Below are positions 62,508 to 64,000 of a stretch of DNA of 64,000 nt, piece by piece; the stretch's first letter is position 1; every line of letters begins with the position of its first letter. The notes beneath the pieces were generated by a model, which had not been told where the DNA came from, did not search any database, and was given only the letters and a program-made list of their open reading frames with translations. The DNA comes from Candidatus Chazhemtobacterium aquaticus (GTDB lineage Bacteria > Patescibacteriota > Microgenomatia > UBA1400 > Chazhemtobacteraceae). The stretch lies in the NCBI RefSeq assembly GCF_009936135.1, contig NZ_CP047901.1, positions 563,354 to 627,353 of the forward strand, given 5' to 3'. A program made the translations under genes and the position numbers.

Positions 62508-64000
62508 TTATGAGAGTAGTTTGGCCACTTGTTCCCTTACCTCATCACTAAAATCAACTCCATAAGGCAGATCAATGATCTTAGGGCCTCCTCCGTTTGG
62601 TACCACCACTCTGACGTGATCATCCCCTGGGTTCTCCTTTAACAGCTTACTGATCATCATTAACACCTCCTTATCAGTTCCCCTGGGAATCTCTATTTCC
62701 TTGACCTCCTTTTCTTCCTTGCTTACATCCACATACTCAACCTCATTGATCACTAGATTGATTGTCTCCTCACGGTAATCCACCTTACCAGTCACCAGCA
62801 CCGACTTATCTTCCTCCCACAGTTCCTTAGTCTCTGCATAAAGCTTAGGAAACACCACCCCATCAACCACCGAGGTGTCATCCTCCAACCTGACAAAGGC
62901 CATTAAGTCATTGTTCTTTTTAGTCACCACCTGTCTTACTTTTATAACCATGCCACCCAAGGTGACTGTCTGACCAATGTGATGTTCTGGATCAAGCTGA
63001 TTAATCCGATGAGTCACTCTCTGAGCCACTCTAGCCATGATGCTCTTTACCGGGTTATCACTCAAGTAAAAACCCAATAGTTCCTTCTCAAACTTAAGCT
63101 TATCTCGCAGTGGCCACTCGGCTACCTCAGGTAAGCTGTCTGCCAACCTCATTGGATCACTCTCTGTCTCAATTTGCCCAAACAAACTGTCCTGCCCCTC
63201 ACTTTTCTTCTTCTGCATACTAGCTGCTTTGTTGCGGATCTCATCTACACCGGCAATCAAAGCTGCTCGGTTACCAAACGCATCAAAAGCACCCGCTTTA
63301 ATCAAACTCTCAATCACTTTTTTATTTACTTTCCTGGCGTCCACCCGGCTGCAGAAATCAGCCAAACTAGTGAACTTAAGCTTATCTCTCTCCTCAAGAA
63401 TCGCTCCCACAGCTGCTTCACCCACATTCTTAATCGCTCCCAACCCAAATCTGATCACCTGCTCGCCATCCTGTTCCACAATCGTAAATCCGGTTAAGGA
63501 TTCGTTAATATCAGGAGCCAGAATAGTGATGCCCATCCGATCACACTCAGCTATTGCCTCCACCAGCTTATCTGTATTACCAGCCTCTGCCGTTAACAAG
63601 GCAGTCATGTACTCAACTGGATAGTTAGCTTTCAAGTAAGCCGTCCAGTAACTAACCATTCCATACGAAGCAGCGTGAGAGTTGTGTACCACCACATCAT
63701 TGGCCAAAAAGTTATGCTCACCTGTTAAGGTTAGGTCGTAAGTCATTTCCTTTCCCTGTTTCTCTACCCCCACCACCTCATCCCAGAAAACATCCGCCTC
63801 TATTAGCCTTCTTAAGGTTTCGGATTCCAACACCTCATTAATTTTGGTTAAAACCTCCCTGGTATATCCGCGTTTTCTCCTATCATCAGAAAACAATCTC
63901 TTTGACAATCCAGTTTGAGAAACCATCTCCTCTACACCAAAACCCTTTTCTTTCATCTCCTCTCGAATTAACCTAAGCACTCCAATCGGTATGGTATCTA
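62508..64000 (-). CDS. dnaE: DNA polymerase III alpha subunit (3' portion; continues beyond the window) containing the C-terminal end of an intein
   Basis: The C-extein is [31 protein letters not shown]..., which is the DnaE region after the FNKSH motif. It is immediately preceded by intein block G, [23 protein letters not shown]. The frame stays open to the window edge. Confidence 0.85.
   Translation of the reverse strand, partial: [496 protein letters not shown]
63681..64000 (-). other. Intein (C-terminal part; splice junction HN|S at about 63681/63680)
   Basis: The intein C-terminal motif ...[20 protein letters not shown] is followed by extein Ser. Upstream intein sequence (…[19 protein letters not shown]…) continues past position 64000. 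Confidence 0.7.

Follow-up and report, generated by a model that had tools for sequence, protein, structure and literature searches.

The window analysed here, 64,000 nucleotides (nt) of the genome of Candidatus Chazhemtobacterium aquaticus, ends inside a gene on the minus strand that combines the C-terminal part of an intein with the C-terminal part of DnaE, the alpha chain of DNA polymerase III (Pol III). A single open frame of 496 codons (62508-63998, minus strand) runs off the window end; in its translation the first 106 residues are the intein's C-terminal part and the remaining 390 are the C-terminus of DnaE. On the intein side, Pfam Intein_splicing (PF14890) matches residues 44-106 of this fragment (E 5.5e-10, 39.7 bits vs a cut-off of 35.8) and the NCBIfam model of the intein C-terminal splicing region (TIGR01443) residues 86-107 (25.6 bits vs a cut-off of 15.6), while a search against solved structures matches this part to DnaB inteins. 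On the polymerase side, Pfam HHH_6 covers residues 156-246 (E 4e-31) and an OB fold (Pfam tRNA_anti-codon) residues 345-421 (E 2e-11), and the NCBIfam DnaE equivalogs start exactly at residue 106. In the same search against solved structures, residues 105-444 align to residues 757-1092 of the E. coli Pol III alpha chain, with the H-N-S-H of the fragment superposed on its N-K-S-H, and the extein on the C-terminal side (C-extein) matches the Pol III alpha structures of M. tuberculosis, E. coli and Taq with E values of 3e-62 to 6e-56. The match of this open reading frame (ORF) to an intein followed by DnaE is far beyond chance.

The rest of the gene was recovered from public contigs. An exact-match DNA search of genome and metagenome contigs with 56 nt of the window end gave no match; in L001 and L002, two relatives with 99% identity, dnaE codon 916 shows a GTA-to-ATA difference that falls inside the 56-nt search pattern, and this would explain the failure if the stored copy is of the L001/L002 type. 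The extension was made through an exact look-up of the adjoining ribosomal protein L19, which is present on 12 public contigs. Across overlaps of 3963 and 2215 nt, contigs L004 and L003 match the window with 100% identity, while the identity of L001 and L002 to it is 99.1% and 99.4%. All four encode a DnaE of 1390 amino acids (aa), an ORF that is unbroken in at least 12 independent contigs. The product of L004 is identical to QHO63621.1/WP_161931994.1, deposited under the plain name “DNA polymerase III subunit alpha”; its source is Ca. Chazhemtobacterium aquaticus, a bacterium of the candidate phyla radiation (CPR)/Microgenomates with a closed genome of 801,504 bp. The paper describing this genome never mentions an intein or DnaE (PMC7143001), and in our literature search no paper naming both inteins and Patescibacteria was found.

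The complete intein comprises residues 766-1000 of the precursor, i.e., 235 aa between Lys765 and Ser1001, within the segment YGFNK/SH (here and below the slash marks a splice junction). The layout of the precursor is ETFAAYGFNK/C1VTGDT...RVT72GNH75PV...YD217LTLTGEH224...H234-N235/S+1HAASYG. The N-terminal junction, GFNK/CVTGDT, lies outside the window (virtual coordinate 64385) and was seen in L004 and L003; it opens block A with Cys1. Block B is present as T72-G-N-H75 (RVTGNHPV), aligned with the Ssp DnaB intein's own block B, and blocks F and G, ending in His-Asn and followed by the +1 Ser, are found inside the window. The canonical residues are therefore all kept (Cys1, Thr72, His75, Asp217, His224, His234, Asn235 and Ser+1). 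Over the complete intein Pfam Intein_splicing extends from residue 12 to 235 (E 5.7e-23). When the exteins are joined without the insert they read AAYGFNK-SHAASYG, compared with GFNKSHSAAY in E. coli, and the alignment to Pol III alpha chains from E. coli, Taq and M. tuberculosis is unbroken across the splice junction. These results bear out what an earlier note, made from the window, had proposed. Its reading of the minus-strand ORF, with the intein end and the DnaE start that it quoted, agrees exactly with our translation; the block G ending in HN and the +1 Ser opening DnaE at FNK/SH are recovered by TIGR01443, PF14890 and the Pol III alpha alignment; and the intein does continue past the window, its N-terminal junction and blocks A and B having appeared after contig extension. 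As grounds for rejecting its reading, the same note had named an extein that reads through without splice motifs or an upstream sequence without blocks A and B; both blocks are present, and removal of the insert restores YGFNKSH.

Endonuclease relics and a predicted helix-turn-helix module

No Pfam match to a LAGLIDADG (PF14528, LAGLIDADG_3) or HNH domain was found in the whole 235-aa intein. The nearest solved sequence, the Ssp DnaB mini-intein 1MI8 (E 3.5e-23), covers intein residues 2-102 and 188-234 and leaves residues ~103-187 uncovered; the latter thus form an insert where an endonuclease canonically sits. An AlphaFold2 model was made on P0016, a 493-aa fragment, 99% identical, that holds the complete intein and its flanks (mean predicted local distance difference test score, pLDDT, 84.9). 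It predicts confident HINT strands, a disordered linker at intein residues ~102-126, a confident helical module and then the C-terminal HINT strands. When searched with Foldseek, the modelled splicing domain matched 1MI8 (TMt 0.94, root-mean-square deviation 1.4 A) and other mini-inteins, with TMt 0.90 for 4O1R and 0.86-0.93 for Mtu RecA, and the modelled extein flanks matched the Pol III alpha chains of E. coli, Taq and M. tuberculosis. The predicted fold of the intein is thus that of a HINT domain. A homology search with the intein alone gave no match, although this search may favour proteins of the length of the query; in a companion search with a 361-aa query the listed matches were all of 211-629 aa.

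The nature of what is missing can be seen by comparison with full-size same-site inteins of other CPR bacteria (P0139, P0140, P0142, L015, L016 and L034), against which ~195 aa, containing blocks C, D, E and H, are absent. Two relic stretches can still be aligned, “GLGKASGVLSHPP” to “LGYLLAEGNFCHP” of the full-size relatives and “HQKQENKLKV” to “NKKQPNGLRV”, and the relic of block C, “GLGKASGV”, is without the acidic catalytic residue. What remains at the endonuclease position is this relic of the first LAGLIDADG motif, the disordered linker and the helical module, colinear with the one that follows LAGLIDADG in full-size same-site inteins. The loss of blocks C, D, E and H while the relics and the module are kept indicates that the intein is, as judged from these alignments, a deletion derivative of a LAGLIDADG homing intein with its accessory domain orphaned. 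Having no endonuclease, it would therefore be unable to home by its own means.

The module, 71 aa long, was also modelled alone (pLDDT 90.8) and is predicted to consist of a short strand and five helices. Its top Foldseek matches are all helix-turn-helix (HTH) proteins of the Cro/C1 (XRE) type, namely SinR, CapH, C.BclI, C.Esp1396I, HipB and DdrO, with TM scores of 0.62-0.77 but E values of only ~1e-2. The Pfam HTH_26 score stays below threshold (15.8 bits vs a cut-off of 22), and among 34 aligned modules the Pfam matches are all sub-threshold as well (CYNS_N in 10/34, HTH_26 in 6/34 and HTH_3 in 5/34). A module of 70-77 aa is found in nearly all the sampled full-size same-site inteins (422-460 aa), between LAGLIDADG block H and block F, and the positions D1, P4, G44, R47, L62 and D69 of their alignment (A2) are conserved. 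By contrast, among the same-site inteins shorter than 420 aa (n=16) it is intact only in the Chazhemtobacterium intein and in that of Ca. Electronema halotolerans (L058). The upstream sequence in the window, for which the earlier note had offered an endonuclease or a DNA-binding insert, is thus no endonuclease and is modelled as a Cro/C1 (XRE)-type HTH accessory domain, putatively DNA-binding.

Insertion site and distribution of the allele

The flank FNK/SHAA with its +1 Ser matches the site of inteins described before. An InBase-derived table gives the DnaE-2 inteins of Tth-HB27 and Tth-HB8, of 423 aa, at FNK/SHAA (S1662) and the Gob DnaE intein, of 446 aa, at FNK/SHTA (S1208) (PMC3359363). 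The comparison with known dnaE sites that the earlier note recommended accordingly leads to the Tth DnaE-2/Gob DnaE site, which is not new. Tth DnaE-1 was considered as a further same-site match and discarded, being located at LRR/SMGK (PMC3359363). In the fingers-domain hot spot of DnaE the insertion points a-d and g lie within 75 residues, point a being that of the split cyanobacterial inteins (PMC4760082). From the cyanobacterial split junction, AEY/CFNK, to FNK/SH there are 4 residues, towards the C-terminal side, and not 3 as stated in that note. A literature search for the site names DnaE-a/b/c returned only papers on split-intein applications.

We searched 1.84 billion representative proteins with phmmer, using a 118-aa piece from the window (106 intein and 12 extein residues), and obtained 2004 matches. 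Among the best 150 of these, ~85 were DnaE/DnaE2 proteins aligned in a single stretch across the junction, i.e., at the same site; the DnaE matches, dozens of representatives with 33-52% identity, ran contiguously over query residues 1-117. Where both junctions were present, the inteins among these 150 had 422-460 aa, with the exceptions of the one in Chazhemtobacterium and another of 249 aa. The latter is found in the metagenomic protein P0226 (2788 aa), a DnaE with this intein at the FNK/SH site plus several others; P0226 and a second metagenomic protein, P0138 (5631 aa), each match the intein C-terminal query in five separate stretches.

The GTDB species genomes were scanned with a degenerate DNA pattern for HNFxA[N/D]xxxVHN[S/T/C]H, which gave at least 120 matches. 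Those listed, 120, include at least 68 same-site cases in DnaE1, at least 26 at the homologous site of DnaE2-like proteins, at least 22 in cyanobacterial DnaX and at least 4 others. The DnaE1 cases among them belong to Chloroflexota, Planctomycetota, Deinococcota, Armatimonadota, Gemmatimonadota, Bacteroidota, Omnitrophota, Proteobacteria and Actinomycetota, with at least 6 in Patescibacteria, and their inteins form a continuum of 145-458 aa in length, as expected if the endonuclease has decayed repeatedly. In GCA_963851955.1 (contig CAWKSB010000021.1; L007:3175-8117) the dnaE with a full-size LAGLIDADG intein at the FNK/SH site is spread over four consecutive ORFs of 730, 206, 472 and 227 aa, probably as the result of assembly frameshift errors rather than of a real split.

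A related intein, ending HN/SH[AS][AMS]SF (mostly SHAASFALL...), occupies the homologous site in the DnaE2/ImuC-like error-prone polymerases from 26 of the listed species genomes (L013, L027, L028, L032, L035, L036, L038, L043-L045, L048, L053, L056, L063, L070, L074, L075, L078-L080, L091, L114, L116-L118 and L125). The carriers are Myxococcota, Steroidobacteraceae and other Gammaproteobacteria, Rokubacteria, Methylomirabilota, Acidobacteria and Armatimonadota. Both paralogues of DnaE are thus covered by one and the same allele.

Proposed splicing, strain divergence and rival explanations

Taken together, the element is very probably a cis-splicing class-1 mini-intein in the fingers domain of DnaE, descended from a LAGLIDADG intein, with its endonuclease lost, and belonging to the same allele as Tth DnaE-2 and Gob DnaE. 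The gene dnaE is essential as that of the replicative polymerase, and we infer splicing because of this and because all the catalytic residues are intact. In the proposed course of the reaction, Cys1 would undergo an N-S acyl shift assisted by Thr72 and His75 of block B, the +1 Ser would attack the thioester, and Asn235 would cyclise with the help of His234 and of Asp217 and His224 of block F, so that the intein would be released and an O-N shift would yield an intact DnaE of 1155 aa. The ancestor would have been a full-size homing intein of the same allele, from which internal deletions removed the endonuclease core, and inheritance would now be vertical, or movement would depend on ordinary recombination. 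The HTH module would be retained neutrally.

Some observations weigh against this account. The argument for splicing draws only on intact motifs and on the essentiality of the host gene, and the HTH module is still modelled with very high confidence though its partner nuclease is gone. The pattern of divergence between strains is a further one. Between L004 and L001 only 4 of the 75 differences in dnaE fall in the intein, which makes up 705 of its 4173 nt (Fisher p 0.005). The tract of low divergence extends over dnaE nt ~2318-3300 (L004:5295-6277 vs L001; roughly 63381-64000 in the window) and comprises the intein and the first ~100 codons of the C-extein. It could hint at constraint or recent recombination and not at simple neutral decay. 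It may be a recombination or gene-conversion tract, and its appearance suits a recombination patch no less than it suits constraint.

The alternative with most to recommend it, although improbable, is that the HTH domain has been exapted, with the excised intein or the precursor binding DNA in a host-beneficial or regulatory role, be it conditional splicing or the release of a DNA-binding protein stoichiometrically with DnaE. Exaptation would account for a domain that has outlived its nuclease, here confidently folded in the model and with the conserved positions kept, and it would fit the low divergence over the intein as well as the independent endonuclease-less intein with an HTH module in Ca. 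Electronema halotolerans (229 aa). However, of the 15 other same-site inteins shorter than 420 aa, 14 lack the module or have it truncated, so that its retention is no general tendency; the adjoining extein falls within the low-divergence tract as well, as expected of a recombination patch; and the four differences within the intein, two nonsynonymous and two synonymous, are far too few for a selection test. Slightly less probable still is the fuller version of this idea, an orphaned XRE-type HTH under selection that would give the intein or precursor a DNA-binding or splicing-control role, i.e., a domesticated intein tied to replication in a CPR bacterium of reduced genome and unusual, one-directional GC skew.

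The two remaining alternatives concern the integrity of the element. A dead intein, either a non-splicing HINT-like relic tolerated in DnaE as a permanent insertion or part of a dnaE pseudogene, would agree with an old element whose endonuclease has already decayed, but we regard it as very unlikely: all the catalytic residues are canonical, the 1390-aa ORF is intact in the at least 12 independent contigs, and the insert, of 235 aa, interrupts the near-invariant YGFNKSH of the fingers domain, where an essential polymerase would hardly tolerate it. A full-size mobile intein with a LAGLIDADG or HNH endonuclease just past the window end, for which the earlier note had left room, is compatible with the window by itself, and most same-site inteins have 422-460 aa with LAGLIDADG. 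We give this almost no credence, since the identical extension contigs provide only 129 more intein residues, for a total of 235 aa, with no LAGLIDADG_3 or HNH match and with block C as a merely degenerate relic. A naturally split intein was ruled out by the single ORF of 1390 codons and by the junction 4 residues downstream of AEY/CFNK.

As a mini-intein without endonuclease, the element has mainly an annotation and cataloguing value, being a so far unannotated member of a known DnaE intein allele, and nothing in it would surprise an intein specialist. It extends the long-known Tth DnaE-2/Gob DnaE allele to the Microgenomates and provides a natural snapshot of the late homing cycle, with the nuclease deleted and the accessory HTH intact. 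It implies that a minimal genome of 0.8 Mb depends on protein splicing for its replicase, and protein engineering could take a minor interest in a naturally compact cis-splicing intein with a +1 Ser.

Genomic surroundings and known systems

The coordinates of the features are collected in Table 1. Next to dnaE, ribosomal protein L19 (176 aa) has a long C-terminal extension of ~60 aa, very rich in Lys and Glu (...AKEQRLAKKADQAGKEKKKADKKKKIQRKEKVFVR). Downstream of rplS (window 61668-61831 and on; L004) there are tRNA-Lys(ttt), tRNA-Glu(ttc) and then a DEAD-box helicase. At that place L001 has Replic_Relax, DUF2958, HTH_17/MerR, an SNF2-PLD helicase and an MmeI-type methyltransferase (L001:10856-20531), and L002 a serine recombinase (L002:10895-14169); these different strain-specific islands suggest that the region downstream of rplS is a variable integration hot spot. 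The window contains 17 tRNA genes overall, 14 of them within 4.7 kb and on both strands, and an AdoCbl-II (cobalamin) riboswitch aptamer (41.3 bits vs a gathering score of 36.5), a noteworthy element for a CPR genome of minimal metabolism. The plus-strand GC skew is very strongly negative in every 4-kb bin of the window (1-64000; -0.15 to -0.37), regardless of gene orientation. It agrees with the near-linear cumulative GC skew of the whole genome, for which unidirectional replication has been proposed (PMC7143001).

Table 1. Features of the dnaE intein locus and of its surroundings, in window coordinates.
Feature	Position	Strand	Basis or remarks
Intein, C-terminal 106 residues (130-235 of 235)	63681..64000 (frame start 63998)	-	translation, PF14890, TIGR01443
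Intein, N-terminal 129 residues	outside the window, virtual coordinates 64001-64385		from the 100%-identical L004 and L003
Predicted HTH accessory domain, 71 aa, intein residues 130-200 (DTIPIG...EADVF)	63786..63998	-	precedes block F, after the place of the lost endonuclease
C-terminal HINT strands, block F (D217, H224) and block G (H234, N235)	63681..63785	-	alignment to 1MI8 residues 109-155, TIGR01443, modelled beta-strands with pLDDT >90
C-terminal splice junction	63678..63686	-	His234 63686-63684, Asn235 63683-63681, +1 Ser 63680-63678
DnaE C-extein, 390 aa and stop codon (62508-62510)	62508..63680	-	end of fingers domain, HhH domain 63261-63533, OB fold 62736-62966, C-terminal tail
Hypothetical intein-less dnaE allele at the insertion point, degenerate DNA			...TAYGGNTTYAAYAAR/TCNCAY...
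Ribosomal protein L19 (rplS)	61890..62420	-	
tRNA array, 14 genes	21086..25809	both	
AdoCbl-II riboswitch aptamer	14410..14483	+	

Among known systems, the DnaE-2 inteins of Tth-HB8 and Tth-HB27 and the Gob DnaE intein share with the one described here the host protein, the FNK/SH site, the +1 Ser, class 1, Cys1 and the C-terminal HN, and the same-site inteins of Deinococcus and Gemmata relatives (L012, L097 and L026) align with it. They differ in size: with 423 and 446 aa the Tth and Gob inteins are as long as the sampled LAGLIDADG-bearing ones, whereas that of Chazhemtobacterium, a CPR bacterium, has 235 aa with the endonuclease deleted. The nearest relatives are in other Patescibacteria (Kaiserbacteria L016, Saccharibacteria L034, and L015, P0139, P0140 and P0142), with ~46-52% identity over the 117-aa C-terminal part. 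These full-size inteins share its site, its HTH module and an extein of the CPR type, SHAASYG, but have 426-434 aa and retain blocks C, D, E and H, i.e., the ~195 aa that Chazhemtobacterium is without.

The Ssp DnaB mini-intein (1MI8) and the Npu DnaB intein (4O1R) are the closest solved sequences and folds of the splicing domain. Their host is however the DnaB helicase, and the endonuclease deletion of 1MI8 was engineered, while that of Chazhemtobacterium is natural and has left the HTH in place. The Ssp and Npu split DnaE inteins have the same host protein and the same fingers-domain hot spot, with a junction 4 residues off, and only weak sequence similarity to the Chazhemtobacterium intein (E ~5e-5 to 1e-3). 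They are encoded by two genes, splice in trans and have a +1 Cys, in contrast to a contiguous intein with a +1 Ser and the canonical penultimate His.

For the accessory domain the likeness is to the TliVMA and PI-TkoII inteins, in which small HTH-like accessory domains, placed after the endonuclease and before the C-terminal HINT segment, are thought to contact the target DNA (PMC8966425). Their position and fold class are those of the Chazhemtobacterium module. Both are archaeal, located in VMA and PolB, and have kept the endonuclease, whereas here the accessory domain is orphaned. The intein of Ca. Electronema halotolerans has the same site and the same arrangement of HINT domain, short linker and HTH without endonuclease, but it represents an independent deletion in a Desulfobulbaceae genome, with a module of the 73-aa “GLTW...KxGFRR” type.

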